The position numbers and the translations under genes are program-made. Below the pieces are notes generated by a model, which saw only the letters and a list, made by a program, of their open reading frames with translations, searched no databases and was not told the origin of the DNA. Below, one piece after another: positions 3,569 to 43,441 of a DNA stretch of 64,000 nucleotides. Origin of the DNA: an uncultured Acidobacteriota bacterium (GTDB lineage Bacteria; Acidobacteriota; UBA4820; DSQY01); NCBI GenBank assembly GCA_963772255.1, contig CAVYWK010000022.1:65388-129387 (forward strand), given 5' to 3'. Position 1 is the first letter of the stretch, and the number at the start of each line of letters is the position of its first letter.

Positions 3569-3576
3569 GATTTCGC

Positions 3577-9465: not shown

Positions 9466-9470
9466 GGGGA

Positions 9471-9598
9471 GGAGGCCTCCGCGGAGAATGTGGAATGTGG
9501 AATGTGGAATGTGCGAATGTGGGAAGGGACATGCGCGAGGCCTCCTTGAGGGGAAGACGCCGCACATTCGCCATTCGCCCTTCGCCATTCGCCATTCG
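9471..9598. repeat. inverted pair of period-7 repeat arms (GGAATGT x4 / CATTCGC x5) between ftsE and ftsX
   Basis: Left arm: gagaatgtggaatgtggaatgtggaatgtgcgaatgtggg. Right arm: cacattcgccattcgcccttcgccattcgccattcg. Both are framed by GGAGGCCTCC palindromes at 9471 and 9537. Confidence 0.85.
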
Positions 9599-9604
9599 AG
9601 TCAT

Positions 9605-14049: not shown

Positions 14050-14442
14050 ATGCAGAAAGTGACGGTCCCTTTCTTGGTCGGGATAGTACTGATCGCAGCC
14101 GGAGCCTTGGCGCAGGGGGTGGCACCCAGCTTTGTCGAGGGCGTGCAGCCCATATTTGACCGGGAATGCGTGAAGTGCCACGGAGCCAAGGAAAGAAAGG
14201 GCAAGCTCGACTTGAGCGCTCCGGATTCATACAAAGCCCTGGTGAACGTCCCCTCCCGGGAAGCCCCGGCCACCCTCCGCGTGAAGCCGGGTGACCCCGA
14301 GCAGTCTTACCTCTGGCTGAAACTGGAGCACCGCACCGAAGAGGGAAGCGGAATGCCCAAAGGTTTCTTCTCCGCCAAGAGGCTTGCCCAAAAGGACCTG
14401 GATGTCGTGAAGGCCTGGATCGCCGCGGGAGCCCAACCCTGA
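14050..14442 (+). CDS. secreted monohaem c-type cytochrome domain protein (planctomycete cytochrome C / PSCyt1-like)
   Basis: 130 aa with a signal peptide. VQPIFDRECVKCHGAKERKGKLDLS is the PSCyt1 signature and includes CxxCH. AAGGAGG precedes the ATG. Confidence 0.65.
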   Translation: MQKVTVPFLVGIVLIAAGALAQGVAPSFVEGVQPIFDRECVKCHGAKERKGKLDLSAPDSYKALVNVPSREAPATLRVKPGDPEQSYLWLKLEHRTEEGSGMPKGFFSAKRLAQKDLDVVKAWIAAGAQP

Positions 14443-14745
14443 ACCCATCGTTTCGGTCCCCAACCCGATAAGCGCCGTTTGCCCCACTCTCGGGGCGCGA
14501 TGGCCTTTTAGAAGAGGCTGCGGAAGAACCCTTTCCGTTTCCGTGCTAGCCAGTAATTAGTCATTAATTTATAGCCATTTTTGCCAACAAGCCGCCATCG
14601 ATACAAATTCAAAACTGGGTGATATGCCTCTATTTTCTGGTGAATCCATCGGGGGCCCTTCTGTTTTTCTTTCAAATCGGGCGGAGTTTCACTACAGTAC
14701 CCTCTAACTGCAGCGGAGTGAACCGCTGCCGAGGAGGGACGGATC

Positions 14746-16552
14746 GTGGCGCAAAAGGGGCAAGGGCTATACCGCAATACTACGAGCTATTTTGGCGGGC
14801 TGATCGTCCTGTTCAGCGCCGCCCTGATGATCGCCACCATGCTCTGGGAACTGGGGCTCAAATCTCCGAGCCCCTACCTGGGCATTTTCACCTACATGAT
14901 TTTCCCGGGGGTGCTTTCCTTCGGCGCGCTCCTCTTTTTCTACGGCATGCGCCGCGAGAGCCTGAGGCGCCGCAGGGCGGGATCCGACGAGGCCCTTCCT
15001 TACCCGAGCCTGGATCTCAATGACCCATATCAGCGCAAGCGCTTCGGCATCATCCTGGTGGGCGGCTCCCTGCTCGCCATTCTCATGGCCTTCGTGGGGT
15101 ACAACGCGTTCATCTTCACCGAATCGGTGACCTTCTGCGGGAGGGTCTGCCACACGGTGATGCAGCCCGAGTACGTGGCCTACCTCAACTCGCCGCACGC
15201 CAAGGTGCGTTGCGTGGAGTGCCACGTGGGTTCCGGCGCCCAGTGGTACGTGAAGTCCAAGATGTCGGGTCTCTACCAGGTCTACGCGGTCCTCACGCAC
15301 AGCTACGAGACCCCCATCCCCACCCCCGTCAAGAACCTGCGCCCCGCCCGCGAGACCTGCGAGGAATGTCACTGGCCCCAGAAGTTCTTCGGCGCCCAGC
15401 TCATGCAGATCCCCCATTTCCGGTACGACGAGAAGAACACCCCCGAGCAGATCAGCCTCGTGGTCAAAACGGGCGGAGGTAGCCCCAAGCTGGGCCTGAA
15501 CGCGGGCATCCACTGGCACATGATCATCAACAACACCGTGACCTTCGCGCCCGAGGACGAGCACTACCAGAAGATCCCCTGGGTCCAGGTGAAGCACGCC
15601 GACGGCAGGGTGACGGTTTACACGGACAAGGCCTCGCCGCCCACCGCCGAAGCGCTGGCCGCCATGCCCCGCCACGTCATGGACTGCATGGACTGCCACA
15701 ACCGCCCCTCTCACATCTATCCCGCGCCCGAAACGGCCGTGGACAAGGCCATGGCGGGCGGCGGCATCTCTCCCGACCCTTCCGTGGATCAAGAAGCTGG
15801 CCGTGGACGCGCTGGTCAAGGATTACAAGACCCGCGAGGAGGCCCGCGAAGGCATCCGAAAGGCCGTGGGCGATTTCTATCTGAAGAATTACCCGGAGGT
15901 CATGAGGACCCGGAAGTCCGACGTGGAGGCGGCCGCCCAGGCGGCCTGCGACATCTACGACCACAGCGTCTTCCCCGATATGAACGTGAACTGGACGAGC
16001 TACGCCATGAACATCGGCCACCGCAACTGGCCGGGGTGCTTCCGGTGCCACGACGGCAACCACGTGAGTGCGGACGGCAAGGTGCTGAGCAAGGAATGCA
16101 CGACCTGCCACACCATGCCCCAGCGTGGTCCCCTCGGACCTCTGGGCAGCGCCGTACCCACCAGCAGCGAGAACTGGCACCCCCTGCCCCTCCAGGGCAA
16201 GCACGCCGACCTGCTTTGCAACCGGTGCCACGCCGCGGGCTTCCGCCCTACCATGGACTGCGCCGGGTGCCACAAGCTCAAGGCCGATGCCCCCATGATG
16301 GGCGACTGCACGACTTGCCACAGCGCCCCGGGCGTCAAGCTCCCCCTGGCCGACTGCAAGACCTGCCACGACACGCTGGGGGGGCTCCACAAGAAGGGCG
16401 GCCACCCCGACGCCTCCTGCATCGACTGCCACGCCAAACACGTCTGGACCGTCACCTCGCGCGAGGCTTGCCTCGCCTGTCACGACGACAAGAAGGACCA
16501 CAACGCTCCCACGTTTTGCGGCGATTGCCACGAGTTCAAGGGGAAGGTCTGA
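14746..16552 (+). pseudogene. membrane-anchored multihaem cytochrome c (12 CxxCH + 1 CxxxCH), split by one frameshift
   Basis: ORF 14746..16617 is protein-like only up to ..AMAGGGISPD. The sequence continues in the frame of ORF 15803..16552 (..LPWIKKLAVDALVKDYKTREE..). The shift is at the C-run 15787-15789. Haem motifs: CGRVCH, CVECH, CEECH, CMDCH, CFRCH, CTTCH, CNRCH, CAGCH, CTTCH, CKTCH, CIDCH, CLACH, CGDCH. Confidence 0.8.
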
Positions 16553-16607
16553 TGACGGCGGGCTGCCCTCCTTCAAGAAGGGTCCGGCGGTGGGCGTCTG
16601 AGAGGGG

Positions 16608-17081
16608 ATGTTCATGAACGCCAGGTTCAAGGACAAGGAGCACCTCATCCGCATGGGCGCTCTCTTCGTGGGCGCCTTCGTCCTCTTTCTCATCCTGAGG
16701 GCCGTTTTCGTGCCGAAGGGGTTCGGCGCCTACGGCCACTACCGCGCCGGAGCGCTCGCGGACAACAGGGACCATGCCCTCGCATTCGCGGGACGGCGGG
16801 CGTGCGAGGATTGCCATTCCGATGTGGCCCTCGTCAGGAAGGGAAGCAAGCACGAACGGATCGCCTGCGAAGCCTGCCACGGAGCCCAATCCGCGCACGC
16901 CTCCGCCGACGACCCCGCCGCGACCAAACCCAAACTGCCCGACGCCAAGACCCTCTGCCTCGTGTGCCACCAGGACAACGTGGCCAAGCCCAAGGGATTC
17001 CCTCAGGTCAATCCGAAGGAGCACGGCGACGGTGGGCCGTGCACCTCGTGCCACAAACCTCACCACCCCGAAGTCTCATAG
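16608..17081 (+). CDS. membrane-anchored tetrahaem cytochrome c
   Basis: 157 aa with an N-terminal TM helix and four CxxCH motifs (CEDCH, CEACH, CLVCH, CTSCH). The start could be the second ATG (16614). Confidence 0.8.
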   Translation: MFMNARFKDKEHLIRMGALFVGAFVLFLILRAVFVPKGFGAYGHYRAGALADNRDHALAFAGRRACEDCHSDVALVRKGSKHERIACEACHGAQSAHASADDPAATKPKLPDAKTLCLVCHQDNVAKPKGFPQVNPKEHGDGGPCTSCHKPHHPEVS

Positions 17082-17091
17082 GAGCCAGAGC

Positions 17092-17858
17092 ATGGCCATC
17101 GGACCGCCGGGAATTCCTGAAGACCACGGGGACTTTCCTGATCCTCACGGGGGCGGCCTCCCTCGCCTGGGACCAAATCCTGGCGGGAGAGCCTGAGAAA
17201 GCCCCCAACTACAACATGGCCGACCACTGGTGGGCCATGGCCATCGACATCGAGAAGTGCATCGGATGCGGCAACTGCGTGCGCGCCTGCAAAGCGGAAA
17301 ACGGCGTCCTGCTGGAGCCTTTCTACTTCAGGACCTGGGTGGAGCGCTACCACGTCCCCGAGGGCGAACTCGAACACCCCCAGGTGGACTCGCCCGACGG
17401 CGGCTACGACGGATTCCCGGAGAAGTACAGGCCCGGCGACGGGTCCAAGAACTTCTTCGTCCCGAAGCTCTGCAACCACTGTGCGCACAGCCCGTGCGTG
17501 CAGGTGTGCCCGGTGGGCGCCACCTTCGAGAGCCCCGACGGCGTGGTCCTCGTGGACAAGAGCTACTGCCTGGGCTGCCGCTACTGCGTCCAGGCCTGCC
17601 CTTACGGATGCCGCTACATCGACCCGCGCACCAGCACGGTGGACAAGTGCTCCCTCTGCTACCACCGGATCACGAAGGGCCTCACCACGGCCTGCTGCGA
17701 GACCTGCCCCACGAGTGCCCGCGATGCTGGGCGATCTCAAGGACCCGCTGGACCCCATCCACGAGTTCCTCAGAACGCACAAGGTGCAGGTCCTGAAGCC
17801 GCAGATGGCCACCGGCTCCAAGACTTACTACAACGGCCTCGACGGCTCGGTCAGGTAG
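17092..17858 (+). pseudogene. Tat-exported 4Fe-4S ferredoxin-type subunit (NrfC/HybA/PsrB-like), two frameshifts
   Basis: ATG 17092 gives MAI, then there is an extra base at ~17101. The corrected read is MAIDRREFLKTTGTFLILTGAASLAW, a twin-arginine signal. The body is in ORF 16802..18028 (CIGCGNCVRAC, CNHCAHSPC, CLGCRYCVQACP). A second extra base at ~17722 moves the tail (ARMLGDLKDPLDPIHEFL..GSVR) into the frame of ORF 17481..17858. Confidence 0.8.
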
Positions 17859-17868
17859 GGGGGCGACC

Positions 17869-19050
17869 ATGGAATCCATCCTCTACCACGTCCAGGGCTT
17901 CATGTACCCCAACGAAGTGGAGCTCCAGTGGAGCATCCTCATCGTCCTCTACCCCTTCATCACGGGCCTCGTGGCGGGCGCCTTCATCCTCGCGTCGCTG
18001 GAGCGGGTCTTCAATGTGGAGGCGGTGAAGCCCACCTACCGGCTCGCCCTTCTCACGGCCCTCTCGTTCATGCTGGTGGCGCCCCTGCCCCTCCAACTCC
18101 ACCTGGGACACCCCGAGCGCTCCCTCGAGATGTACCTCACGCCCCACACCTCCTCGGCCATGGCCATGTTCGGCTTCGTCTACCTCTGGTACCTCATGGT
18201 CGTGCTCGTCCTGGAAATCTGGCTCGACTACCGAAAGGACATCGTCCTGCAGGCGCGCGCCACCACGGGCTGGACCCGGAAGCTCTACCGCGCCATGGCG
18301 CTCTGGTCCGACAACATCAGCGAGCGCTCCCTCGAAATCGACGACAAGGTGGGACGGTTCATCACCATCGTGGGCATCCCCTCCGCCTTCCTGCTCCACG
18401 GGTACGTGGGATTCATCTTCGGGTCCATCAAGGCGAACCCCTGGTGGTCCACGCCCCTCATGCCCATCGTCTTCCTCTTCTCGGCCATCGTGTCGGGCAT
18501 CGTGCTCGTGATGCTGATGTACATGGTCGTCTCGTGGGTCCGGAGGACGCCGATCGACATGCGGTGCCTGGACACCATCGGGCGTTACTTCATGTACGCC
18601 TTCATCATCGACTTCTCCCTGGAAATGCTGGACCTGATCCACCGGATCTACGAGGCGGACGAGTCCTTCAAGAGCCTCAACTTCATGGTGCACACCAAGC
18701 TCTACACCTCTCAGGTCATCATCCAGATCGTCATGGGGACGGTGGTGCCCATCGGGGTCCTGGCCCTCATCCAGCTCGTGAGGCTGTCCGACACGGCGCG
18801 GAAGGGCCTCTACGCGCTCGCGGGCGGGCTGGCCATGATGGGCATCTTCGCCATGCGGTGGAACGTGGTCATCGGCGGCCAGCTCTTCTCTAAGAGTCTC
18901 CTGGGGTACACCACCTACAAAATGGCCTTCGCCACGCGGGAGGGGCTCTTGGCCACCGTCATCCTCCTCACGCTGCCCTTCGTGATCCTCTGGGTTCTCG
19001 TCAAGCTCCTGCCCCCTTGGCCGGAGAAGGCCGGGGGCGAAACCCGCTAG
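17869..19050 (+). CDS. NrfD/PsrC-family integral membrane quinone-interacting subunit
   Basis: 393 aa and polytopic, with an NrfD-like N-terminus (LQWSILIVLYPFITGLVAGAFILASL). It directly follows the FeS subunit. Confidence 0.85.
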   Translation: MESILYHVQGFMYPNEVELQWSILIVLYPFITGLVAGAFILASLERVFNVEAVKPTYRLALLTALSFMLVAPLPLQLHLGHPERSLEMYLTPHTSSAMAMFGFVYLWYLMVVLVLEIWLDYRKDIVLQARATTGWTRKLYRAMALWSDNISERSLEIDDKVGRFITIVGIPSAFLLHGYVGFIFGSIKANPWWSTPLMPIVFLFSAIVSGIVLVMLMYMVVSWVRRTPIDMRCLDTIGRYFMYAFIIDFSLEMLDLIHRIYEADESFKSLNFMVHTKLYTSQVIIQIVMGTVVPIGVLALIQLVRLSDTARKGLYALAGGLAMMGIFAMRWNVVIGGQLFSKSLLGYTTYKMAFATREGLLATVILLTLPFVILWVLVKLLPPWPEKAGGETR

Positions 19051-19121
19051 CGCCCGACAGAGCGGGAGGCGCGGGGCCCACCCGCGGGATGGGGTCTTCC
19101 CGCATCAGATGGAGGTAGGAC

Positions 19122-19775
19122 GTGGCCGAGAAGGCTCCGCATGCTCAGGCGGGCGGATTCGTATCGCGGAAGGCGCGCCCCGGGGTCTCCCTGCTCCTTT
19201 GCGCCGCCGTCGCCACTGTGACCGCCGCCGGCTATTCCTGGGCCCAGGCCCCACCCCCTCTTCGCCCAGAGGCCAAAATCCCTCAGGCTAAGGACCCGCA
19301 GGTCGCGGCGAGCGTAGGATCTTCGGGGGGGCAGGATATCCAGGTGCCGCCTCCCCCGTTCACGGAGGGGATTTTCCCCTGCACCCAATGCCACGACGGC
19401 AAGACGGTCAAGCTGAATACCACGCCGCGAAAGCTCGTGGACATGCACGACGACATCGTCCTCAAGCACGGACCAAACCGGTGGTGCCTCGACTGCCACA
19501 GCGCGGAGCACCGGGACCAGTTGCACCTCGTGGACGGCCAGCTCATCGACTTTTCCAAGTCCTATCTCCTTTGCGGGCAGTGCCACGGGGACAAGCTGCG
19601 CGACTGGAGATTGGGGGTCCACGGCAAGCGGACGGGAGAGTGGAACGGCAAGAAGCAGTACCTGCTCTGCGTCAACTGCCATAACCCACACTCGCCCCAT
19701 TTCAAGCCCCTCAAGCCCCTGCCCCCGCCCCTCCATCCAACGGAGATCAACATCCAGCAAGGAGGCCGGCCATGA
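19122..19775 (+). CDS. periplasmic tetrahaem cytochrome c
   Basis: GTG start with GGAGG upstream and a signal peptide. Four CxxCH motifs: CTQCH, CLDCH, CGQCH, CVNCH. Confidence 0.8.
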   Translation: MAEKAPHAQAGGFVSRKARPGVSLLLCAAVATVTAAGYSWAQAPPPLRPEAKIPQAKDPQVAASVGSSGGQDIQVPPPPFTEGIFPCTQCHDGKTVKLNTTPRKLVDMHDDIVLKHGPNRWCLDCHSAEHRDQLHLVDGQLIDFSKSYLLCGQCHGDKLRDWRLGVHGKRTGEWNGKKQYLLCVNCHNPHSPHFKPLKPLPPPLHPTEINIQQGGRP

Positions 19776-20713
19776 GCGACGAGCGCCGCCTCGACCCTCC
19801 GTCCGAGAGGCTCCCCGCCCGGGACCGCCCCGCCTCCGATTCACGCCGCAAGTTCCTGCAGGCCGCCGGCTGCGCCGCCGTGGCCACCGCCCTCACGGGG
19901 TGCAAGCACCTGACCATGGAGGAGTTTCTCCAGCACAACTTCAGGGAACTGAACAAGGAGGAGCTGCGGCAGATCATCGCGCGCCTGGAAAAGGAATACT
20001 CGGCCAAGTTCGGTAAGGCGGTGACGGTGGGGACCGAGCCTCCCATGAAGGGCGTGGTCTTCGGATACGCTCTGGACCTCTCGCGGTGCATCGGGTGCCG
20101 GCGGTGCGTGTACGCCTGCGTGAAGGAGAACAACCAATCGCGGGACCCGCAGATCCAGTGGATCCGAGTCCTTCAGATGGACAAGGCGGAAGGCGTCAAC
20201 ATCCGCCACGCGGACCCCTACTACGATCCGCCCCTCGTCCCCCAGGAGGGCCACTTCTACATGCCCGTCCAGTGCCACCAGTGCAAGAACCCGCCCTGCG
20301 TGAAGGTCTGCCCGGTGAAGGCCACGTGGCAGGAGCCCGACGGCATCACGGTGGTGGATTACAACTGGTGCATCGGGTGCCGCTACTGCATGGCCGCGTG
20401 CCCTTACGGCGCGCGCCACTTGAACTGGGGCGAACCGAACCTCCCCAAGGAAGAGATGAACCCCGTCACCCACTACCTGGGAAACCGGCCCAGGGCCAAG
20501 GGGGTGGTGGAGAAGTGCACGTTCTGCATCCAGCGGACGCGCAAGGGCCTCTATCCCGCCTGCGTGGAGGCGTGTCCCACGGGGACTCGCAAGTTCGGCA
20601 ACCTCCTGGATCCCCAGAGCGAGATACGGTACATCATCGAGAACAAGCGGGTCTTCCTCTTCAAGGAGGATCTCAACACCCAGCCCAAGTTCTACTACTT
20701 CTACGGAGTCTGA
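19772..20713 (+). CDS. Tat-exported 4Fe-4S ferredoxin-type subunit (NrfC/HybA/PsrB-like)
   Basis: 313 aa. Tat motif SRRKFLQAAG. Cluster motifs CIGCRRCVYAC, CHQCKNPPC, CIGCRYCMAACP, CTFC..C. It overlaps the upstream stop by 4 nt. Confidence 0.85.
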   Translation: MSDERRLDPPSERLPARDRPASDSRRKFLQAAGCAAVATALTGCKHLTMEEFLQHNFRELNKEELRQIIARLEKEYSAKFGKAVTVGTEPPMKGVVFGYALDLSRCIGCRRCVYACVKENNQSRDPQIQWIRVLQMDKAEGVNIRHADPYYDPPLVPQEGHFYMPVQCHQCKNPPCVKVCPVKATWQEPDGITVVDYNWCIGCRYCMAACPYGARHLNWGEPNLPKEEMNPVTHYLGNRPRAKGVVEKCTFCIQRTRKGLYPACVEACPTGTRKFGNLLDPQSEIRYIIENKRVFLFKEDLNTQPKFYYFYGV

Positions 20714-20714
20714 G

Positions 20715-21950
20715 GTGAGAGAGACCGTGCGGTCGTTCTGGCACTTCTGTCTCGAAAGCCCCAGGCTCCTCGTGGTGGGCAACCGGTACTACTACGGCTG
20801 GGTGGCCTTCCTCCTGGCCCTCATCGGGGCGGGGATCTTCGCCTACATGGGACAGGTCCAGGAGGGCCTCATCCAAACCCACATGCGGGACCAGGTCTCG
20901 TGGGGCTTCTACATCGGCAACTTCACCTTCCTCGTGGGGATCGCGGCGGCGGCCATCATGCTGGTGATCCCCGCCTACGTCTACGAGTGGAAGCCCATCA
21001 AGGAGGTCGCCATCCTGGGCGAGCTCCTCGCCATCAGCGCCCTCGTCATGTGCCTCTGCTTCGTCCTGGTGGACATCGGCCGGCCCGACCGGTTCTGGCA
21101 CATCACCCCCATCGTGGGGCTCCTGAACTTCCCGAGCTCCCTCCTGGCCTGGGATGTCCTGGCGCTCAACGGCTACCTGCTCCTCAACTGGTTCGTCGTC
21201 ACCTACCTGCTCTACTGCGCCTACACGGACCGGCACTACATCAAGAACCTCGTCTACCCGCTGGTGTTCCTCTCCATCCCCATGGCCGTGAGCATCCACA
21301 CGGTAACGGCCTATCTGTACAACGGCCTGGGGGCGAGGCCCTACTGGAACTCCGCCATCCTGGCGCCGCGCTTCCTCGCCTCGGCCTTCTGCTCGGGGCC
21401 AGCCATCCTCCTCATCCTTTTGCAGATCCTGCGCAAGACCACGCGGCTGGAAATCAAGGACGAGGCCATTTTCAAGATCGCCGAGCTCATGGCGTACACC
21501 ATGGGGTTCAACCTCTTCCTCACCGCTGCGGAGGCCTTCAAGGAGTTCTACACGAACAGCGAGGACGTGGTTTTCATCCGGTACCTCTACCTGGGGCTCG
21601 AGGGCCACCACACCCTGGTGCCTTACGCATGGGCGTCCGTGGGCTGCGGCCTGGTGGCCTTTCTCCTGTTCCTCGTGCCCAGGACCCGCAAAAACTGGAT
21701 CACGCTCAACATCGGGTGCGTCCTGATCTACGCCAGCGTCTACATCGAGAAGGGCATGGGACTCATCATCCCGGGGCTCACGCCGGACACCCTGGGCGAA
21801 ATTTACACCTACAGGCCTTCGGCGACGGAGATCTTCGTGGCCGCGGGCATTTTCGCCCTGGGGTTCCTGGTCTTCACCCTCATGCTGAAGATCGCCGTAC
21901 CTCTCATGCTGGGCGAGTTCACCGCCACCAAACGATGCCCTTCCGTTTGA
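20715..21950 (+). CDS. NrfD/HmcC/DsrP-like integral membrane subunit
   Basis: 411 aa and polytopic. A GTG start lies 1 nt after the FeS gene stop, indicating tight coupling. Confidence 0.85.
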   Translation: MRETVRSFWHFCLESPRLLVVGNRYYYGWVAFLLALIGAGIFAYMGQVQEGLIQTHMRDQVSWGFYIGNFTFLVGIAAAAIMLVIPAYVYEWKPIKEVAILGELLAISALVMCLCFVLVDIGRPDRFWHITPIVGLLNFPSSLLAWDVLALNGYLLLNWFVVTYLLYCAYTDRHYIKNLVYPLVFLSIPMAVSIHTVTAYLYNGLGARPYWNSAILAPRFLASAFCSGPAILLILLQILRKTTRLEIKDEAIFKIAELMAYTMGFNLFLTAAEAFKEFYTNSEDVVFIRYLYLGLEGHHTLVPYAWASVGCGLVAFLLFLVPRTRKNWITLNIGCVLIYASVYIEKGMGLIIPGLTPDTLGEIYTYRPSATEIFVAAGIFALGFLVFTLMLKIAVPLMLGEFTATKRCPSV

Positions 21951-22029
21951 CAGCCCCCGAACCGGGCTGATAGGCTCAGTCTTCGGCGGGGCCTGCGGTT
22001 GCCTCCGCTATCCGGTCCGGGGGGCCCTG

Positions 22030-22827
22030 GTGATACGCCGTCTTCGCATTCTCTTCCAGGTTGTGATGGTGGTGGCTGCAGCGGCGGTCGGTATCCGTTA
22101 CGCCATGGGCTGGGCGCTCACTTCGGTGGAGAAATACTGCCCCTTCGGAGGCCTGGAGACGGCCTACGCCCTCATCGCGCGAAAGCGATTCACCTGCGCC
22201 GCGGGGGAGCTGAACCTGGCCCTCTTCATCGCCCTCATCGCCCTCACGCTCCTGGCGAGGAAAGCCTTTTGCGGGTGGGCCTGCCCCCTGGGGGCCGTCT
22301 TCGAATGGACGGGGCGCCTGGGCAGGCGTCTGTTCAAGCGTGAGACGTTCCAGGGGCTCTGGATCATTCCTCCCAAGGTGGACGCGGCGCTCAAGATCGC
22401 CCTCCGATGCATCGTGACGGCCGTCATCCTCGCGGCCACCTGGGCCACGGGAGAGCTGGTCTTCCGGGGGTACGACCCCTACTACATCCTCTTCAGCGCC
22501 CACGGACACGATGTGCGGATGTGGAGCTACGGCATACTGGGGGCGCTGGTCCTCCTGGGATTGCTGGTCCCTCTGTCCTGGTGTAAATACCTCTGCCCGC
22601 TGGGAGCCGTCCTCTGGCCCTTCTCCGCCGCGGGGCGCCTCCGCCTGGAACGCTCGGAGGACCACTGCACGGGATGCGGATCGTGCGACGATGCCTGTCC
22701 TCAGGCGCTGGATGTGTCGGAGGTCTTGGGCGTACGCTCCGGAGAGTGCACGCTCTGCCTGGAATGCACGGCTGCATGCCCCGCGCAGGGCGCGTTGGAG
22801 CTGCGATGGAAGGGCGTGGCCCCATGA
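22030..22827 (+). CDS. NapH/MauN-like membrane-bound 4Fe-4S protein
   Basis: 265 aa. It has repeated CPxG motifs within TM segments (CPFGG, CGWACPLG, CKYLCPLG) and a C-terminal 2x CxxCxxC ferredoxin part (CTGCGSCDDACP, CTLCLECTAACP). Confidence 0.75.
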   Translation: MIRRLRILFQVVMVVAAAAVGIRYAMGWALTSVEKYCPFGGLETAYALIARKRFTCAAGELNLALFIALIALTLLARKAFCGWACPLGAVFEWTGRLGRRLFKRETFQGLWIIPPKVDAALKIALRCIVTAVILAATWATGELVFRGYDPYYILFSAHGHDVRMWSYGILGALVLLGLLVPLSWCKYLCPLGAVLWPFSAAGRLRLERSEDHCTGCGSCDDACPQALDVSEVLGVRSGECTLCLECTAACPAQGALELRWKGVAP

Positions 22828-23219
22828 AGACGCCCCAGTGGGTCGTGCCCGCGCTCGTCGTTCTCTTCGCCGCCCTGGGCATCGGAGGAGCGAGGCTCCT
22901 CGCCATCCCGAGCGTGGTGAGAGACTTCGCCCCCGCCGGATCGGGACCCCTGCGGACGACGCTCCTGGTCGTGGACGGCGTGAAGTGCGTGGACACGGCC
23001 GAGCGCGCTGCGAACCAATTCAAAGAAGTGCCGGGGGTCGTGCGCCTCGTGGCCTACGCCTCGCGCAACCGCGTCGAGGTGACCTTTCGGCCCGAGGTCA
23101 CCGATGTGACGAAGATCAAGGACGCCATCGAGGGACCGGTGTATGATGAGACCTCGAAGGAGTATCTCTTCGGCGTCTACAAGGTCGTCGAAGTGGATGG
23201 GGTGGAAGTCCAACGCTAA
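22824..23219 (+). CDS. membrane-anchored protein with an HMA-like (ferredoxin-fold) domain lacking the CxxC metal site
   Basis: This is the inner start of ORF 22674..23219, with an ATGA overlap on the upstream stop. It has an N-terminal TM helix. LLVVDGVKCVDTAERAANQFKEVPGVVRLVAYASRNRVEVTF resembles a heavy-metal-associated fold. The assignment is tentative. Confidence 0.45.
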   Translation: MKTPQWVVPALVVLFAALGIGGARLLAIPSVVRDFAPAGSGPLRTTLLVVDGVKCVDTAERAANQFKEVPGVVRLVAYASRNRVEVTFRPEVTDVTKIKDAIEGPVYDETSKEYLFGVYKVVEVDGVEVQR

Positions 23220-23295
23220 TACCGTGTTCCCCGCCGGGAAACGGCCGGGGCTACTTCAGTCAGCGAAACGCGCTGAACCACACAGGAGGATCGGA

Positions 23296-23712
23296 ATGTC
23301 GTTCAAGAAGCTCGCCGTCATCGCCCTCGCCTCGCTCGTCCTCGCCGCCCTTCCCCTCTTGGCCGGGGACGCCGTTCCCGCCGGAAACGCAACGACGAAG
23401 GTCGAAGCAGCCAAGGGCCCAGAAACGGCCGTCTTCGCCATCCCCGGCCTGAAAGATGAAGCCCTCGTCAAGAACCTCAACTCGGCCCTCGCCAAGGAGG
23501 TCGGCATCATGGCGGCCAAGGCCGACGCCGAGAATGGCAAGTTCATGGTCACCTTCGAGCCGGGCAAGACCAATCCCGAAACCCTCGGCAAGGCCCTCGC
23601 CAAGGTCTCCCCCGAAGCCAAGTTCGAGAAGGTCCAGGCCGCTGACCCGGCGGCCGCCAAGCACGACTGCTCCAAGTGCCCGAGCAAGTCCACCTGCGGC
23701 AAGCACAAGTAG
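23296..23712 (+). CDS. secreted HMA-like domain protein with Cys-rich C-terminal tail (CSKCPSKSTCGKHK)
   Basis: This is the inner start of ORF 23143..23712, with AGGAGGA upstream of ATG 23296. It has a signal peptide, and AVFAIPGLKDEALVKNLNSALAKEVGIMAAKADAENGKFMVTF is HMA-like. Confidence 0.45.
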   Translation: MSFKKLAVIALASLVLAALPLLAGDAVPAGNATTKVEAAKGPETAVFAIPGLKDEALVKNLNSALAKEVGIMAAKADAENGKFMVTFEPGKTNPETLGKALAKVSPEAKFEKVQAADPAAAKHDCSKCPSKSTCGKHK

Positions 23713-23815
23713 AAAGTGAAAGGTTAGAAGTGAGAAGTGAAAAGTCAGCAGGGAAACGGGGGTGAGTATCTGGATTCGCTCTTGCTTTTCACTTCTTACT
23801 TTTCACTTTTTACTG
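23711..23815. terminator. long hairpin made of period-7 repeats (GTGAAAA/GTGAGAA vs CTTTTCA/CTTCTTA) between convergent genes; likely bidirectional terminator
   Basis: The left arm 23711-23750 and right arm 23778-23815 are near-complementary. They are followed by the palindrome CTGTTAACTAACAG, which carries stops in several frames. Confidence 0.6.
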
Positions 23816-23826
23816 TTAACTAACAG

Positions 23827-24297
23827 CTAACCCTTCTCCAGTTTGAGGAGTTGCTTTTTCATCTTCGGCCCGCCGCCGAACCCGCCGAGCCCCTCTTTGG
23901 CCACGACCCTATGGCACGGGATGATGACGGGGATGCGGTTGGCCCCGCAGGCCCCGCCGACGGCGCGCACGGCCTTGGGGCGACCGGCCCAGCGGGCCAA
24001 GTCGCCGTAGCTGACGACCTCTCCGTAGGGCACCTCGCGCAGGGCGGCCCACACATTGCTTTGGAAGGCCGTGCCGGGAGGATCCGGGTCGAGGGGCAGG
24101 TCAAAAGCCTGGCGGCGCCCTTGGAAGTACTCCTCAAGCTCCTTCTTGACCCTTTTGAAGAGCGGCGCCACGGGCCTGGGGACGGGACCGTCGGGCGCCA
24201 CGCCCCCGAAGTCGATGCGATGCACGGCGTCCTCGGAGAGGGTCACGTCGAGGCGTCCGATGGGGCTCTCCAGCCCCAGGGTGATCTTGCCCTTCAT
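23827..24297 (-). CDS. ogt: methylated-DNA--protein-cysteine methyltransferase
   Basis: Starts MKGKITLGLESPIG and has the active-site PCHRVV. Its ATG overlaps the queF stop (ATGA). Confidence 0.85.
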   Translation of the reverse strand: MKGKITLGLESPIGRLDVTLSEDAVHRIDFGGVAPDGPVPRPVAPLFKRVKKELEEYFQGRRQAFDLPLDPDPPGTAFQSNVWAALREVPYGEVVSYGDLARWAGRPKAVRAVGGACGANRIPVIIPCHRVVAKEGLGGFGGGPKMKKQLLKLEKG

Positions 24298-24692
24298 GAT
24301 CCGAACCCCCCTTTCTTGGCGTAGGTGGCCACCACGGAAGCGCTCAGCCCGCCGCGCGCGTTGAACACGCCCGTGAGGCTCGCCTGCTCGGGCTTGCACG
24401 CGGCCACCACGTCACGAAGCACGCGGTTCACCGCGTTCTCGTAAAAAATGCCCAGGCTCCGGTAGGCGAGAAGGTACTCCTTGTACGACTTGAGTTCCAG
24501 GCAGGCCTTCCCCGGCGTGTACCGCAGGACGAGGAGGCCGAAGTCGGGCAGGCCCGTTTTGGGACAGACGGACGTGAACTCGGGGGACTCGATGGTGATC
24601 TCGTAGCTCGGAAACTGGTTGGGCCAGGTCTCGATGGCCGGGAGTCTTTCGTCCAGACCCTTCTTCGCGTGCTCCTTCGTATAGCCGTTCAT
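24294..24692 (-). CDS. queF: NADPH-dependent 7-cyano-7-deazaguanine (preQ0) reductase
   Basis: Starts MNGYTKEH. It has the catalytic Cys context SVCPKTGLPDF and the QueF motif ELKSYKEYL. Confidence 0.85.
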   Translation of the reverse strand: MNGYTKEHAKKGLDERLPAIETWPNQFPSYEITIESPEFTSVCPKTGLPDFGLLVLRYTPGKACLELKSYKEYLLAYRSLGIFYENAVNRVLRDVVAACKPEQASLTGVFNARGGLSASVVATYAKKGGFGS

Positions 24693-24719
24693 GGGGGCAG
24701 CCCTCCGCAGGGTAAAGGT

Positions 24720-24800
24720 GATCAAGGGATCGGGTGATCGGGTGATGCGGTGATCACTGGGCCACTCGATCACTTGGTCACCTGGTCACTCGATCACCTC
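24720..24800. repeat. inverted pair of period-8 repeat arms (GATCGGGT-type / GATCACYT-type)
   Basis: The sequence gatcaagggatcgggtgatcgggtgatgcggtgatcac | tgggccactcgatcacttggtcacctggtcactcgatcacc. The right arm includes the last five codons and the stop of the glutaredoxin gene. Confidence 0.8.
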
Positions 24801-25052
24801 TTTAATCAGCTTCTCCAACTCGCCGCTCCTGTTCAACGCCTCCAGGTCGTCACAGCCTCCGATGTGCTTGTCTCCGAAGAAAATCTGGGGTACCGTCTGT
24901 CGCCCCGAACGCCTCTCGCACTCCCCCCAACGCTCCGGGTGGTGGTCCAGGTTCACTTCCTCGAAGGCCACCCCCTTCTTCTTGAGCATCTTCTTCGCGG
25001 CGATGCAATAGGGACAGATGGTCATGGTGTAGATGATCACGTTCGCCGACAT
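24786..25052 (-). CDS. glutaredoxin
   Basis: 88 aa with the CPYC active site and a GGxdD motif (HIGGCDDL). GGAGGA precedes the ATG. Confidence 0.9.
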   Translation of the reverse strand: MSANVIIYTMTICPYCIAAKKMLKKKGVAFEEVNLDHHPERWGECERRSGRQTVPQIFFGDKHIGGCDDLEALNRSGELEKLIKEVIE

Positions 25053-25110
25053 GGTTCCTCCATCTCACCCGGCCACGGTAGCATCGAGCGGTACGGGAGG
25101 CAAAGGCGAA

Positions 25111-25310
25111 GGAGCCGGGAGCAGGGAGTGGGAAGCAGGGAGCCGAACCTAAATCCCATGGCCGGCGTATTCTCAGTTCCCCGGTTTCCTAGCCCCGAAG
25201 TCCACAATCACCCAATCACGAACTTTGGATGGCGATCAGAGTGGAGCGGCCCAACGGGACCCATGCTTTCCCCTGCTCCGTTCTCCCTACTCCCTGCTCC
25301 CTGCTCCCTG
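25111..25310. repeat. GGGAGCR period-7 arm (25111-25145) and complementary GCTCCCY arm (25266-25310) about 120 bp apart in a divergent promoter region
   Basis: The arms ggagccgggagcagggagtgggaagcagggagccg ... ctttcccctgctccgttctccctactccctgctccctgctccctg lie between the grx start and the dedA start. Confidence 0.75.
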
Positions 25311-25382
25311 ATAGCGTCTTATCATTTGACTTTCCCGGCCTCATCTTGCATCCTCAGGATTCGCTTTAGGGGGACCGCAAGC

Positions 25383-26057
25383 ATGGAACTGCTGAAGGAA
25401 CTGCTGGGCGCGCTGCACGACCCCGACAAGCTCCGGGCCCTCATCCTCTGGGGGAGCTACCCCGTCCTCTTCGGCATCGTCTATTCGGAAACGGGGCTCA
25501 TGGTGGGGTTTTTCCTGCCCGGCGATTCCCTGCTGGTGACGGCGGGGATCCTGGCGGGTCAAGGGTATTTGAACCCCTGGACCCTGTGCGGGCTGCTCAT
25601 CGCCGCCGCCGTGCTGGGAGACAACACGGGCTACTGGATCGGTCGGAAGACCGGGCCCCTCCTGTTCACCCGGCCCAAGTCGCTCCTCTTCAACCCCTCC
25701 CACGTGAAGCGCGCCCAGGGCTTTTACGACAAATACGGAGCCAAGACCGTGGTGCTCTGCCGCTTCGTGCCCATCGTGCGGACCTTCGCCCCGGTGGTGG
25801 CCGGCGTGGGCAAGATGGTTTACCGGCGGTACGTGGCCTTCAGTATCATGGGGGGCATCGCCTGGATTTCGAGCATGATCCTCACGGGTTACTTTCTGGG
25901 GAGCATCCCGGGAGTGAACCGCTATCTCCACCTCATCATCCTCTCGGTCATCTTCCTTTCCATCCTGCCCGCCATCATCGAAATCTGGCGCGAGAGGAAA
26001 AAGCGACCGACAGGGAGCGGGGAGCGGGGAGCAGGAGTGGGGGACGAAAACCCCTGA
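25383..26057 (+). CDS. DedA-family inner membrane protein
   Basis: Starts MELLKELLGAL and has the DedA signature (GFFLPGDSLLVTAGILAG .. GRFVP-like CRFVPIVRTFAPVVAGV). The last ~12 codons (GSGERGAGVGD) are encoded by a GGGAGCR repeat array at 26011-26045. Confidence 0.85.
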   Translation: MELLKELLGALHDPDKLRALILWGSYPVLFGIVYSETGLMVGFFLPGDSLLVTAGILAGQGYLNPWTLCGLLIAAAVLGDNTGYWIGRKTGPLLFTRPKSLLFNPSHVKRAQGFYDKYGAKTVVLCRFVPIVRTFAPVVAGVGKMVYRRYVAFSIMGGIAWISSMILTGYFLGSIPGVNRYLHLIILSVIFLSILPAIIEIWRERKKRPTGSGERGAGVGDENP

Positions 26058-27809: not shown

Positions 27810-28120
27810 TCCTAATTCCGCGATTGAATTCACTTGCCTTCGAATCGTGGGTGGTTTCGGATGCGTGCGGCTCGACCTCCGGGACGGGGAAGGCCCATTC
27901 CCTCCACGCCCCGCGGGCAAAGCCCGACGGAGCGCTCAGTCACCCTTTGGGGCCCTCCACGCCCCGCGGGCAAAGCCCGACGGAGGACCCCAACCCACCC
28001 TTGGGGCTTTCCCGCCAGAAAGCATCTCGAGCGGAGGTGGCCCCGCTCACCTGCCCGGTGAACGGAGCATGTCGGCAAAGGTGCTTTAGGCCCATTCTGG
28101 CCGCCCTCATCGCGGAACCT
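27810..28120 (+). mobile_element. MITE-like element, copy 1 (~311 bp) with imperfect terminal inverted repeats and a 9-bp flanking direct repeat
   Basis: The left end is tcctAATTCCGCGATTGA and the right end is TCATCGCGGAACCt. It is flanked by GGGAGATCA at 27801-27809 and 28121-28129. It is related over most of its length to 49437-49764 (reverse orientation). It contains an internal tandem duplication (27900-27952 / 27953-28005). Confidence 0.7.
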
Positions 28121-30915: not shown

Positions 30916-31275
30916 CTAGCGGTTTTCGGCCCGCGTGAGGACGGCGAAAAACGCAAGCGGTGCCGTCCCTGGGTTCGCCAACCCATGGGTGTGCCCCGCC
31001 TTGCACAGCCAGACATCGCCGGGGCCCACATCGAAGGACTCACCGTCCAGAAGCCCTACACCCTGGCCCTCCAGGACCAGATAGAGTTCCTCCGTCTCGG
31101 GGTGCAGGTGTTCGCCCACGGAGGCGCCCGGTTCCAGCGCGATCCGGCTCGCCATGAGGACCCCCGCCATCTCGTCAGGAGTCAGGTAGTCCACCGCCAG
31201 GGCTTTCCCCAATCCCCCGCGGATCTTCTCTTTGACCTGCGTAGGCAGGCTCTCAAGCCTCTTGATCATTTCCAT
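30916..31275 (-). CDS. cupin-domain protein
   Basis: Starts MEMIKRLES. It has the cupin motifs GASVGEHLHPETEELYLVLEG and GDVWLCKAGHTHGLAN. The longer ORF (to 31440) runs through a repeat array and a gene remnant. Confidence 0.8.
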   Translation of the reverse strand: MEMIKRLESLPTQVKEKIRGGLGKALAVDYLTPDEMAGVLMASRIALEPGASVGEHLHPETEELYLVLEGQGVGLLDGESFDVGPGDVWLCKAGHTHGLANPGTAPLAFFAVLTRAENR

Positions 31276-31276
31276 T

Positions 31277-31307
31277 CTCCCTGCTCCCCGCTCCCCGCTC
31301 CCGGTCC
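31277..31307. repeat. period-7 repeat array (GCTCCCY; GGGAGCR on the minus strand)
   Basis: The sequence tctccctgctccccgctccccgctcccggtcc lies between the aceF-end remnant and the cupin start codon. Confidence 0.7.
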
Positions 31308-31309
31308 TA

Positions 31310-31385
31310 CCCTTCCAGCGCCAAGAGCATGGGCTCCTCCAGGGCCTGGCAGACCCACCGGAGAAAGCGCGCGCCGTTGGCGCCG
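31310..31385 (-). pseudogene. orphan copy of the last ~25 codons of aceF (E2): ..GANGARFLRWVCQALEEPMLLALEG-stop
   Basis: It matches 36877-36952 (the real aceF 3' end) at 74/76 nt: one D->N change and one silent change, plus TAG instead of TGA just outside the aligned block. No upstream E2 sequence is attached. Confidence 0.85.
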
Positions 31386-36399: not shown

Positions 36400-36873
36400 C
36401 GTCCCCCCCTTTCATTCCGTTTTCCCGGGGCACGCCCCGGACCCAACCTGCCCCTCGGTCATCAGGCACCGGTGGGCGAACACCGAAAATGCGGGGGCTT
36501 TCTCCCCACAATACGATTCAAGATGCTCCGGACTCGTAGGGTTGAGAAGTCGTGCGGAAAAGACACGACAAAATAGGGCGATATACCCCGATTAGTGGGT
36601 ATTATTTCCTCAGGTAGCCAGGTGGGAGGTTTGCATTTTGGGCACGGCTTCTAGCAGGAGCCACGGGCTTTGGCTCCGTGTTCCGGAGCACTGCCGCGGA
36701 CGGAGCGCAGTCCAGCCAGTTCACCCGGACAAAGTCACCGCGGGAAGGGGTGCGCTCCACCCCTCAACGAGTCGCCTCCTGCTTTTCCGAGGCAGGAGGC
36801 CGGGGTTCTTCACGGGTCCCCTGCTCACCAACTCTCCTACTCACCTGCGTTCCTTAATCTCAATCCCCAACGT

Positions 36874-38211
36874 TCACCCTTCCAGCGCCAAGAGCATGGG
36901 CTCCTCAAGGGCCTGGCAGACCCACCGGAGAAAGCGCGCGCCGTCGGCGCCGTCGATGAGGCGGTGGTCGTAGGAGAGGGAGAGGGGCAGGATCGTGCGC
37001 GGCTGGAATTGGCCCTCCCTCCAGACCGGCTGAATCTCGGACCGCGACACGCCCAGGATGGCCACCTGGGGCCAGTAGACGATGGGCGAGAACCCCACGC
37101 CCCCGATGCCGCCGAGGTTCGAGAGCGTAAAGGTGCCACCCTCCATGTCCTCGGGCGAAATGCGCTTCGTCCTGGCCTTTTCGGCGAGGGCGGCGATCTC
37201 CGCGGAGAGCGCGGTGATGTTCTTTTTGTCCGCGTCGCGCACCACGGGAACGAGGAGGCCTCGGTCCGTGTCCACGGCCACGCCCAGGTTCACGAACTCC
37301 TTGAAGACGATCTCGCCGTGCTCCACATCCAAGCTCGCGTTGAACTGCGGGAAGGCCCTGAGCGCGCCCGCCAGGACCTTCACGAGGATGGCCGTCATGG
37401 TGAGTTTGCCGCCCGCCGCTTCGACCCTCTTGGCGTGCTTGGCCCGGAAAACCTCCAGGTCGGTGATGTCGGCCTTGTCGTACTGGGTGACCGTGGGCAC
37501 GGTGGCCCAGGCGTGGGCCATGCTCTCGGCGGTGATCCTGCGCACCTTGCTCATGGCCTCCCGGCGAACCGGGCCAAACCGGGCGGGATCGGGCAAGGCC
37601 TTGGACGGGACGGCGGCCCCGGGCACCGCGGGCACCCCCGCGCCCATGACGAGCTTGGCGTGGATCTTCACATCGTCCGCCGAGACGCGCCCTCGCGGGC
37701 CCGTCCCCGTGACCTGGGTGATGTCCACGCCGAGTTCCCGGGCGAGCCTGCGCACCGACGGCGCCGCCGGCGTGGAGGGCTTGGGCATGGAGGCATCCGG
37801 GCCGGCCATGGGCCTGGCGGGTTGAACGGCGGGTGGCGGGGTGGCGCGTGCCGGGCGCGAGGGCTCGGGAGCTGGTGACGGGTTCGGAGGAGGATTGTTT
37901 GGGAGCGGCGCGGGAGCCGCAGTGGCCTTGGCGGCGGCGGGCGCGGCGGGCGTGGCTGCCCCGGCCTCAGCGCCCGCGGCTTCCACCCGCACCACGACCT
38001 GCCCCACCTTGATGCTCGTTCCCTTCTGGGCCAGCACCTCCACCACGGTCCCCGCCTCGGTGGATGGCATCTCGAAGACGGCCTTGTCGGTCTCCAGCTC
38101 CAGGAGGGGCTGGTCCAGGACCACCGCGTCGCCCACTTTGACGAGCACTTTCACCACGTCCGCGGCGTTGGTGCTCTCCGACAGTTCGGGAAGCTTGATG
38201 TCTTTGATCAT
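36874..38211 (-). CDS. aceF: dihydrolipoamide acetyltransferase, E2 of the pyruvate dehydrogenase complex
   Basis: 445 aa. It has a lipoyl domain (LELETDKAVFEMPS), an Ala/Pro linker, a subunit-binding domain (PSVRRLARELGVD) and a catalytic domain (SLSYDHRLIDGADGARFL). Confidence 0.9.
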   Translation of the reverse strand: MIKDIKLPELSESTNAADVVKVLVKVGDAVVLDQPLLELETDKAVFEMPSTEAGTVVEVLAQKGTSIKVGQVVVRVEAAGAEAGAATPAAPAAAKATAAPAPLPNNPPPNPSPAPEPSRPARATPPPAVQPARPMAGPDASMPKPSTPAAPSVRRLARELGVDITQVTGTGPRGRVSADDVKIHAKLVMGAGVPAVPGAAVPSKALPDPARFGPVRREAMSKVRRITAESMAHAWATVPTVTQYDKADITDLEVFRAKHAKRVEAAGGKLTMTAILVKVLAGALRAFPQFNASLDVEHGEIVFKEFVNLGVAVDTDRGLLVPVVRDADKKNITALSAEIAALAEKARTKRISPEDMEGGTFTLSNLGGIGGVGFSPIVYWPQVAILGVSRSEIQPVWREGQFQPRTILPLSLSYDHRLIDGADGARFLRWVCQALEEPMLLALEG

Positions 38212-38224
38212 TTAAACCCCTTTT

Positions 38225-43440: not shown

Positions 43441-43441
43441 T

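Follow-up and report, generated by a model that had tools for sequence, protein, structure and literature searches.

Inverted pairs of tandem hepta- and octanucleotide arrays at gene junctions of an uncultured acidobacterial lineage

Introduction

In a 64-kb stretch of DNA from an uncultured Acidobacteriota bacterium (contig CAVYWK010000022.1, positions 65,388 to 129,387; this whole stretch is called the window hereafter), an intergenic hairpin with arms built of tandem 7-nt units lies between a small secreted-protein gene and the MGMT gene. The locus raises the question of what kind of element such a hairpin is, how it could have arisen and whether it acts on its neighbors. A preliminary description of the window had placed it in a family of intergenic hairpins with locus-specific tandem repeats, and had not recognized the family as a described repeat class. 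As detailed below, the feature is an inverted pair of tandem hepta- or octanucleotide arrays at a gene junction, which is of a known kind and is found here in a new lineage. The best reading, which we hold with slightly better than even confidence, is that these are repeat hairpins grown by slippage, acting, if at all, as mRNA structures comparable to REP/BIME elements, a function that we infer.

Arrays and hairpins in the window

The focal hairpin fills the whole of the 114-nt gap between two convergent genes, the small secreted-protein gene and MGMT (Table 1). In the plus-strand RNA, the region 23709-23822 forms an almost unbroken stem some 40 bp long, with a folding energy of -48.4 kcal/mol (z = -7.4). 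An equally good fold was not seen in any of 200 dinucleotide shuffles; the fold of the minus-strand RNA reaches -29.5 kcal/mol (z = -5.1). The site resembles in part a two-way terminator with expanded A/T tracts. The sequence of its center is not kept in L081 and L083, two relatives introduced below. It is noted that a cluster of genes for multihaem cytochrome c, NrfD-like and 4Fe-4S proteins (a respiratory complex, 14050-23712), in a gene order common to the window and L081, ends at this hairpin.

Arrays were sought with Tandem Repeats Finder (TRF) and a separate autocorrelation scan, which concur on the non-focal array sites. At 3.5 or more copies and at least 80% match, the window contains 12 arrays of period 7 and five of period 8, compared to means of 0.2 and 0.35, respectively, in 20 dinucleotide shuffles, so the earlier count of at least a dozen short-period arrays stands far above shuffles. 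The single arms listed earlier at 3143-3185, 3541-3568, 26011-26045, 31277-31307, 43343-43440 and 54581-54610 were recovered by TRF or our own scan, with 43343-43440 resolving into two different arrays; those at 36827-36850 and 48522-48552 are weak and appear in neither scan. By Pfam scans, the approximately 60 open reading frames (ORFs) of the window that were scanned are ordinary chromosomal genes.

Facing arrays are present at five loci, four of which fold into stems of 25-40 bp (z from -3.5 to -7.4). The pairing proposed earlier holds for 23711-23815, 24720-24800, 25111-25310 and 38225-38431, all with complementary arms; the fifth locus, ftsE-ftsX, is weaker and is weighed later. Stem-loops fill whole spacers at ftsE-ftsX, aceE-aceF, grx-queF, upstream of grx and at the focal site. 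The arms start a few nucleotides from stop codons and finish shortly before the following gene; the ftsE-ftsX hairpin, for example, starts 3 nt past the ftsE stop and ends about 17 nt short of the ftsX start. The placement first described, beside stop codons or between the genes of operons, is thus retained, with one array (26009-26037) inside an ORF tail. At grx-queF, where folding gives z = -5.1 and -7.1, the last codons and stop of the glutaredoxin gene (GAG GTG ATC GAG TGA, minus strand) are units of the C-rich arm. Upstream of grx, the core between the arms is single-copy in all compared sequence apart from its L081 orthologue, in which it is 93% conserved; in L083, other arrays stand in its place. 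This core could be a structure of the 5' untranslated region or a small RNA. The 218-nt aceE-aceF spacer holds four arrays, which are read as two tandem hairpins (z = -3.5 and -4.7).

Table 1. Positions of arrays, hairpin parts and adjoining genes in the window, and of two orthologous arrays in relatives
Feature	Position	Strand	Unit or sequence	Remarks
Small secreted-protein gene	TAG stop 23710-23712	+		upstream of focal hairpin
Focal hairpin, 5' arm	23713-23756		AAAGTGA / GAAGTGA, about 5 units	begins 1 nt past TAG stop
Focal hairpin, center	23757-23779		non-repeat, 23 nt	makes its own small stem
Focal hairpin, 3' arm	23780-23821		CTTTTCA / CTTCTTA	ends 6 nt short of MGMT stop
MGMT gene	23827-24399	-		convergent with small secreted-protein gene
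ftsE-ftsX, G-rich arm	9482-9522		GGAATGT, about 5 units	
ftsE-ftsX, C-rich arm	9563-9601		CATTCGC, about 5 units	
grx-queF, G-rich arm	24717-24757		8-nt units GGTGATCG / GGGATCGG	
grx-queF, C-rich arm	24758-24797		8-nt units GATCACYN	
Upstream of grx, G-rich arm	25111-25143		GGGAGCN	
Upstream of grx, core	25144-25270		non-repeat, 127 nt	between the arms
Upstream of grx, C-rich arm	25271-25315		CTGCTCC, about 6 units	
aceE-aceF, G-rich array	38223-38254		GGGAGCG, about 4 units	G-quadruplex possible in principle
aceE-aceF, C-rich array	38301-38333		GCTCCCY	pairs with 38223-38254
aceE-aceF, G-rich array	38340-38365		GGTGAGC / AGTGAGC	partial partner of 38394-38431
aceE-aceF, C-rich array	38394-38431		GCTCCCY, about 5 units	abuts aceE stop codon 38430-38432 (- strand)
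Unpaired array	3143-3185		AGTGAAA	8 nt past stop of 72-amino-acid ORF (+ strand)
Unpaired array	3541-3571		GGGAGCN, read on - strand	6 nt past stop of Band 7/SPFH gene (- strand)
DedA-tail array	26009-26037	+	GGGGAGC	within C-terminal tail of DedA/VTT-family ORF (stop 26055-26057)
Unpaired array	31270-31307	-	GGGAGCN	fills 37-nt spacer between aceF 3' fragment and cupin gene
Unpaired array	43339-43400		CTTTGCTT on +, AAGCAAAG on -	between terminator 43311-43337 and ChsH2/DUF35-like stop (- strand)
Second array, unrelated to 43339-43400	43406-43437		TCGTGGCC	directly past ChsH2/DUF35-like stop 43442-43444
Unpaired 8-nt array	54579-54609		CACCTACN	after terminator-like hairpin 54530-54555
DedA-tail array, L081	8372-8408			
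DedA-tail array, L083	4720-4758			

At least six unrelated units occur within the 64 kb. GGGAGCN-type units recur (3544, 25111/25274, 26009, 31271 and the four arrays at 38223-38431), GTGAAAA-type units are found at 3147 and 23719 and again at another locus in L083, and each remaining type occurs once. The view that units are locus-specific therefore holds only in part: there are several unit types, but GGGAGCN is present at six sites or more and GTGAAAA at two. In self-BLAST, similarity between loci is limited to the repeat units. The earlier argument against copies of a single transposed element is borne out, with no conserved core across loci and no transposase in the approximately 60 window ORFs scanned.

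To place these numbers, the window was scanned together with 162 other loci from many phyla, mostly aceE or queF neighborhoods (1.94 Mb in total). The aceE-derived loci from genome contigs, only 60-69% identical and from many phyla, are a control set and not orthologues. The scan returned 243 arrays of period 7 or 8 and 88 pairs of neighboring arrays, 37 of them inverted-complementary and 17 direct. Crude gene calls assign about 14.5% of the DNA to intergenic regions. Period-7 arrays were counted 124 times in intergenic and 78 times in coding DNA and period-8 arrays 28 and 13 times, which is a strong intergenic enrichment; for period 6 the counts are 84 intergenic versus 278 coding. In each arm a unit of 7 or 8 nt is repeated three to six times in tandem, the two arms are about 84% complementary to each other, and the copy-number distribution tapers smoothly between 3 and about 6 without a sharp optimum. 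In the whole data set the median arm length is 32 nt and the median gap is 40 nt (range 7-364 nt).

The paired architecture is also present in Ignavibacteria (L005), Vicinamibacterales (L014), other Acidobacteriota (L024, L030, L042), Pirellulales (L062), Anaerolineae (L015) and others. One unit often recurs within a genome, as GGGCTCA does three times in L024 and GGGAGCN at least six times in the window. It should be mentioned that heptamer arrays are extremely dense in the L005 locus, from a metagenome-assembled genome of Ignavibacteriaceae, with 16 arrays in 22.7 kb, among them an 84-nt TAACACC array at 18855-18938, and with several unit types reused.

Relation to known repeat systems

Reports of heptamer arrays in bacteria go back to 1990; cyanobacterial STRRs (short tandemly repeated repetitive sequences) and the general excess of heptanucleotide repeats in prokaryotes are treated by Mazel 1990 and Mrazek 2007 (both cited in PMC4692102). 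The STRR heptamers of cyanobacteria are reportedly tandem and intergenic, with several unit types per genome, and slippage tied to the polymerase footprint is said to have been proposed, in work on STRRs or on heptanucleotide simple sequence repeats (SSRs), as the reason for period 7. Compared to the pairs in the window, STRRs are mostly described as single arrays. REP/BIME elements of enterobacteria and pseudomonads are intergenic or intercistronic imperfect palindromes, often tandem and alternating, which stabilize upstream mRNA and modulate termination; REPs form a fixed family of 20-40 nt with a conserved GTAG/CGTC head and are spread by the RAYT transposase. The analogy to REP/BIME that we propose is one of function, whereas the arms in the window differ from them in being built of tandem units that vary in sequence and copy number and have no family consensus.

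Paired arrays have been reported in Geobacter metallireducens (Aklujkar et al. 2009, PMC2700814), with 24 pairs in which the octanucleotide GTTGCTYN is repeated four times in tandem, 21 pairs with TCTCCGTS in three copies, eight pairs with the heptanucleotide MTYCTGA in five copies, of which one lies between proB and proA, and 49 elements of GGACCGG in four copies. The paired sites lie on opposite strands at variable distance, three paired classes are absent from G. sulfurreducens, and the sites were interpreted as binding sites of an unknown global regulator (PMC2700814). Geobacter and the window are alike in units of 7-8 nt with three to five tandem copies per site, in opposite strands and variable distance, in several unrelated unit classes per genome, in sites between operon genes and in absence from relatives. 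From our reading of the figure legends (PMC2700814), the C-rich motifs of Geobacter diverge, which is equivalent to a G-rich arm on the 5' side, as here. However, each Geobacter class occupies tens of loci as a multicopy family detected by BLAST, whereas in the 64-kb window one unit type clearly recurs; the Geobacter sites, from another phylum, were also interpreted as protein-binding sites and not as hairpins.

In Xanthomonas, about 185 GGGAATC arrays per genome, mostly of about four units, include 70-75 cases of two sites convergent on opposite strands, and their positions are conserved across species while their lengths vary (Rehm et al. 2015, PMC4692102). The same study describes heptameric SSRs as over-represented in bacteria and the literature on them as sparse, and covers the GGGGAYT heptamers of Nostoc, in which inverted pairing is said to be rare. 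The window shares with Xanthomonas (about 65% GC) intergenic heptamers, usually of about four units, conserved positions with varying length and sequence, and convergent pairs able to form stem-loops (about 40% of Xanthomonas arrays); its GGGAGCN arrays also share the G3-N4 pattern with GGGAATC. Xanthomonas differs in having one dominant unit genome-wide, compared to at least six in the window, most of which are not capable of forming a G-quadruplex (G4) and some of which are 8 nt long.

TAACTGA direct repeats have been described in Beggiatoaceae, cyanobacteria and Bacteroidetes (MacGregor 2015, PMC4679880). Like the arrays here, they are intergenic tandem heptamers near start codons that occur among other heptamer arrays and are missing in close relatives, whose spacers are shorter; unlike them, they have one specific unit and are nearly always direct, with one inverted case in 170 sets (PMC4679880). 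In Nostoc, a preprint reports that deletion of heptamer repeats had modest effects on expression.

Set against paired arrays of the Geobacter and Xanthomonas type, the window shows three or more tandem units of 7-8 nt, convergent pairs on opposite strands, intergenic enrichment and positions that are conserved while length and sequence vary. The class is already described, and the impression of an undescribed class gives way to the earlier reports on G. metallireducens (PMC2700814) and Xanthomonas (PMC4692102). Of the hairpin interpretation in the preliminary description, the tandem-arm hairpins in intergenic spacers are real; its statements on units, strand rule and novelty need correction. 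What is new beyond the cited papers is the cross-phylum scan, the contrast in polarity with ordinary hairpins, the replacement of unit and period in orthologous spacers and the encroachment of arrays on ORF ends. The paired architecture is now seen in an uncultured acidobacterial lineage as well as at loci of Ignavibacteria, Planctomycetes and Chloroflexi.

Comparison with relatives

Six spacers of the window were compared to their orthologues in L081 (Logan assembly, aceF 89% identical), L083 (JGI metagenome, QueF 95% identical) and L082 (ENA contig, aceF 84% identical over 66% of the query). L083 and a further JGI metagenome sequence, L084 (QueF 81% identical), are the two close relatives obtained by a metagenome search with QueF. 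Among named sequences, the nearest homologues of aceF come from metagenome-assembled genomes of Acidobacteriota. Close relatives have arrays in the matching spacers, but the unit, the copy number or even the period differs, and more distant relatives have tight gene junctions where the window has hairpins. The flanking proteins are 85-95% identical between genomes that differ in this way.

In the aceE-aceF spacer, the GGGAGCG arrays of the window correspond to CAGCTGA/TAGCTGT in L081 and to a 10-nt junction, TAGAGGGGCCGCCATG, in L082. On the 3' side of MGMT, the window has five GTGAAAA units per arm around the 23-nt center, L081 has GTGAGG / CCTCAC units, L083 has two units per arm and a 4-nt loop, and L082 is without an array. 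The grx-queF spacer has 8-mer arms with unlike copy numbers in the window, L081 and L083; in L084 it measures 45 nt without an array, and in L082 the genes overlap. Variation in unit number between orthologous spacers, for which a comparison had been suggested, is evident at both of these sites. Upstream of grx, arms and core are conserved in L081, a single G-rich array is present in L082, and seven GGGGACA and four CTTTTCA units replace arms and core in L083. Between aceF and the cupin gene, the window has GGGAGCN of period 7, L081 has GTAATCGG of period 8, and L082 has GGGAC / GCTCCC arrays. In the DedA tail, GGGGAGC of period 7 in the window corresponds to CCGGGGAG in L081 and GGGGAGCC in L083, which are both of period 8 and are one repeat in different rotations, so that every unit differs by one base between the window and the relatives.

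The comparison shows that the hairpins were inserted into, or expanded within, junctions that other genomes keep tight. A one-base change in all units of the DedA-tail array is the pattern that concerted evolution through slippage, with arrays often gained and lost, is expected to leave. The arms of the three focal hairpin orthologues are not alignable since their unit numbers differ.

Polarity of the arms

After removal of pairs sharing an arm, the G-rich arm is on the 5' side in 29 of 32 hairpins (p = 2.6e-6), and it is so in 22 of 25 outside the lineage of the window. Ordinary perfect hairpins in the same sequences (stem of at least 9, loop 3-9) number 67 with G on the left versus 84 with C on the left. 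Among arrays adjacent to stop codons, those with a G-rich sense strand outnumber the others by 35 to 14. The purine-rich arm had been placed on the left of the plus strand; this layout holds, with nothing specific to the plus strand, because it is invariant under reverse complement and the rule is therefore a G-rich arm 5' and a C-rich arm 3' on either strand.

Two candidate causes may be considered. Rho prefers C-rich, unstructured RNA, and selection could keep a C-rich run of 7-nt period from exposure to Rho until its partner, the arm that pairs with it, is transcribed. The other candidate is that the pairs originate when a G-rich repeated 3' end folds back and is copied.

Proposed mechanism and alternatives

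From the anatomy of the arrays and the comparison with relatives, each arm would arise at a gene boundary, where strand slippage amplifies a short seed. The seeds may be the last codons together with the stop, a GGGAG that resembles a Shine-Dalgarno sequence, or terminator A/T tracts; local seeds are suggested because the glutaredoxin end and stop are array units, the cupin array ends in a Shine-Dalgarno-like sequence and a T-rich array follows a terminator. Turnover inside an array would homogenize its units and could therefore let unit, copy number and period shift between close genomes. A transcribed pair would form an imperfect stem-loop of 25-40 bp that takes up the whole spacer, starting at the upstream stop codon and reaching almost to the next gene, and insertion of a hairpin may be tolerable in a tight operon junction because the stem would draw the stop and the next start together. 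Long stems, if transcribed, are expected to block 3' exonucleases and to serve as RNase III substrates, and between cistrons the stem may act in either way; between convergent genes, as at the focal site, it may insulate or terminate in both directions. Should the hairpins influence mRNA processing or termination, the relative expression of neighboring genes would be tuned by a means that is widespread and evolves fast.

A number of observations weigh against this slippage-grown, REP/BIME-like reading. The mismatches between arms (68 G.U on plus, 59 G.U on minus and 65 transversions, with 995 matches) give no strand-specific wobble signal. By our reading of the folding energies, the sense strand of co-directional spacers has the better fold in 10 cases, the worse in 4 and an equal one in 2, which is not significant. 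Arm lengths are uncorrelated (r = 0.06), so independent slippage of each arm fits better than selection for matched arms. RNAalifold on the three grx-queF orthologues gives only two compensatory pairs. Most hairpins are without a U-tract after the arms, and a scan with a terminator consensus found 14 sites versus 12.9 in shuffles, which is no excess. The ftsE-ftsX stem, which had been listed as paired at 9471-9598, is weak, its arms being complementary at only 5 of 7 positions per unit (z = -2.0 and -1.5). The gene calls are crude (GC3-based), which makes distances to start codons approximate, and the Rho account of the polarity, a candidate, is conjectural. The mismatch, folding, arm-length and copy-number results fit independent slippage in each arm with weak or no selection on exact pairing, and the available tests do not decide between action at the RNA level and action at the DNA level.

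These same results lend themselves to a neutral explanation, which we regard as possible but doubtful. Units of 7-8 nt would expand at gene boundaries as a mutational by-product, and only insertions that fold on themselves, thereby holding the stop and the following start near each other, would escape purifying selection, with no useful role. Such an origin agrees with the quick gain, loss and replacement among close relatives, with the uncorrelated arm lengths, with arm mismatches that resemble ordinary mutation (transitions to transversions about 2:1, no strand bias), with arrays that spill over into ORF tails and with the smooth drop in copy number between 3 and about 6, free of a sharp optimum. 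However, the polarity of 29 versus 3, which ordinary hairpins lack, is not predicted by neutral slippage, matching spacers stay occupied in three genomes despite their replaced units, and one unit type occupies many loci per genome (GGGAGCN in the window, GGGCTCA in L024). If the hairpins are neutral, they would be a clean natural case of concerted evolution in bacterial micro-satellites.

The polarity could also be taken as the mark of a distinct intergenic class, spread over many phyla, in which it is obligatory and which has a dedicated origin mechanism or a dedicated reader; the tandem-arm hairpins would then be programmable insulators at operon junctions and not slippage debris. The arrangement would resemble two telomere-type G-strands that meet head to head. 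The origin might be fold-back synthesis from a G-rich repeated 3' end, and the reader might be Rho, loading on YC motifs spaced by 7 nt that the 5' arm would mask. We consider this proposal unlikely.

Action at the DNA level, through periodic sites for a nucleoid or regulatory protein (IHF/HU-type) or through non-B DNA such as a cruciform or a G-quadruplex, is in our view quite unlikely. The paired arrays of G. metallireducens were given an interpretation of this kind (PMC2700814), the G.U pairs show no strand preference, and the typical arm has about four to five units. GGGAGCN in four or more copies fits a G3-N4 motif like that of the Xanthomonas GGGAATC repeat, which forms G4 in vitro (PMC4692102). 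Read from the sequence, the G4 pattern (at least four G3 tracts, loops of 1-7 nt) fits 38223-38254 and 26009-26037, and on the minus strand 31270-31307, 25271-25315 and 38394-38431. Most units are nonetheless incapable of G4, and the pattern is unmet by the focal GTGAAAA arms, by GGAATGT and by GTGATCNN. With six or more unrelated units present in 64 kb, many different binding proteins would be needed, units turn over between close relatives while the arrays persist, and no binding protein is known in any organism.

Mobile elements of REP/BIME or MITE type, served by a dedicated transposase whose gene lies at another place in the genome, are highly improbable: one unit does occur at several loci per genome, hairpins break junctions that are tight in other genomes, two array-adjacent gene-3'-end fragments are duplicated elsewhere in the window and insertion sequence elements of Geobacter insert at a fixed distance from paired-array sites (PMC2700814), but likeness between loci stops at the repeat units with no common core, end or target duplication, arm copy number varies continuously, units are taken from the adjoining gene, and the scan of approximately 60 window ORFs against Pfam found no transposase domain, including no RAYT (Y1 transposase).

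Several specific identities were rejected. Membership in the REP/BIME family is ruled out by at least six unrelated tandem units, by self-BLAST similarity confined to units and by the lack of a single 20-40 nt palindrome with a GTAG/CGTC head; a MITE or other mobile element based on the 127-nt core 25144-25270 is ruled out by its being single-copy save for the L081 orthologue. A CRISPR array has repeats of 23-50 nt and spacers of similar length, and the units here are 7-8 nt, head-to-tail and without spacers. Intrinsic (Rho-independent) terminators were dismissed on the scan result given above and because most arms have no T run. Stop-rich units serving as stops in all frames were rejected because the frequency of stop-containing units is, by a hand estimate, not clearly above expectation, and a CsrA-type GGA sponge because GGA is present in only some units and would sit inside stems. 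Rfam gave no match at the gathering threshold in the whole window; at an E-value threshold, 24950-25450 and 54240-55220 gave nothing credible, with only chance matches of long-hairpin microRNA models at 25100-25320.

Unpaired arrays and other features

Unpaired arrays adjoin stop codons (3143, 3541 and 43406), lie in a stop-to-start spacer (31270-31307) or adjoin terminators (43311-43337 and 54530-54555). Both terminators are GC-rich hairpins of the canonical type with runs of T, an unpaired 8-nt array comes after each of them, and the array at 43339 (CTTTGCTT) resembles an expanded T-tract of its terminator. The array at 31270-31307 terminates in a Shine-Dalgarno-like GGGAGAA ahead of the cupin ATG.

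Arrays also reach into gene ends. The tail of the DedA/VTT-family protein is encoded by the repeat units of the array 26009-26037, and the glutaredoxin C-terminus EVIE* or EVIR* with its stop is built of array units (24770-24800 on the minus strand; L081 9609-9625; L083 5905-5925), the glutaredoxin C-termini in the more distant relatives L082 and L084 being unrelated. Automatic gene callers run ORFs into arrays (24294-24773 and 8563-9588 are examples), and the arrays are a source of annotation error because ORFs are extended through them.

Two longer repeats lie in intergenic regions of the window. A 221-bp unit in 2.1 tandem copies (54629-55097, 86% match) occupies a long gap upstream of glnE and has no Rfam match. 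A 267-nt inverted repeat of 73% identity (49502-49763 / 27811-28071) joins two intergenic regions 21 kb apart, and the ORFs overlapping it have no Pfam match.

The final 77 nt of aceF, including the stop, are duplicated with 97% identity (36876-36952 and 31309-31385), and the copy lies just ahead of the array of GGGAGCN units and the cupin gene. L081 and L082 have the cupin gene directly after aceF. Because of this order, about 5.5 kb, encoding a histidine kinase, a sigma-54 response regulator, a BBP2 porin and an ammonium transporter, appears to have been inserted between aceF and the cupin gene, bordered by the 77-nt duplication. The 3' end of the ChsH2/DUF35-like gene (43440-43566) is likewise duplicated, with 90% identity, at 41350-41475 upstream of aceE. 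This is the second case of an array-adjacent gene-3'-end fragment copied elsewhere, and beside the copy there is, by eye, a degenerate TCGTGG-like stretch similar to the start of the array downstream of the ChsH2/DUF35-like gene.

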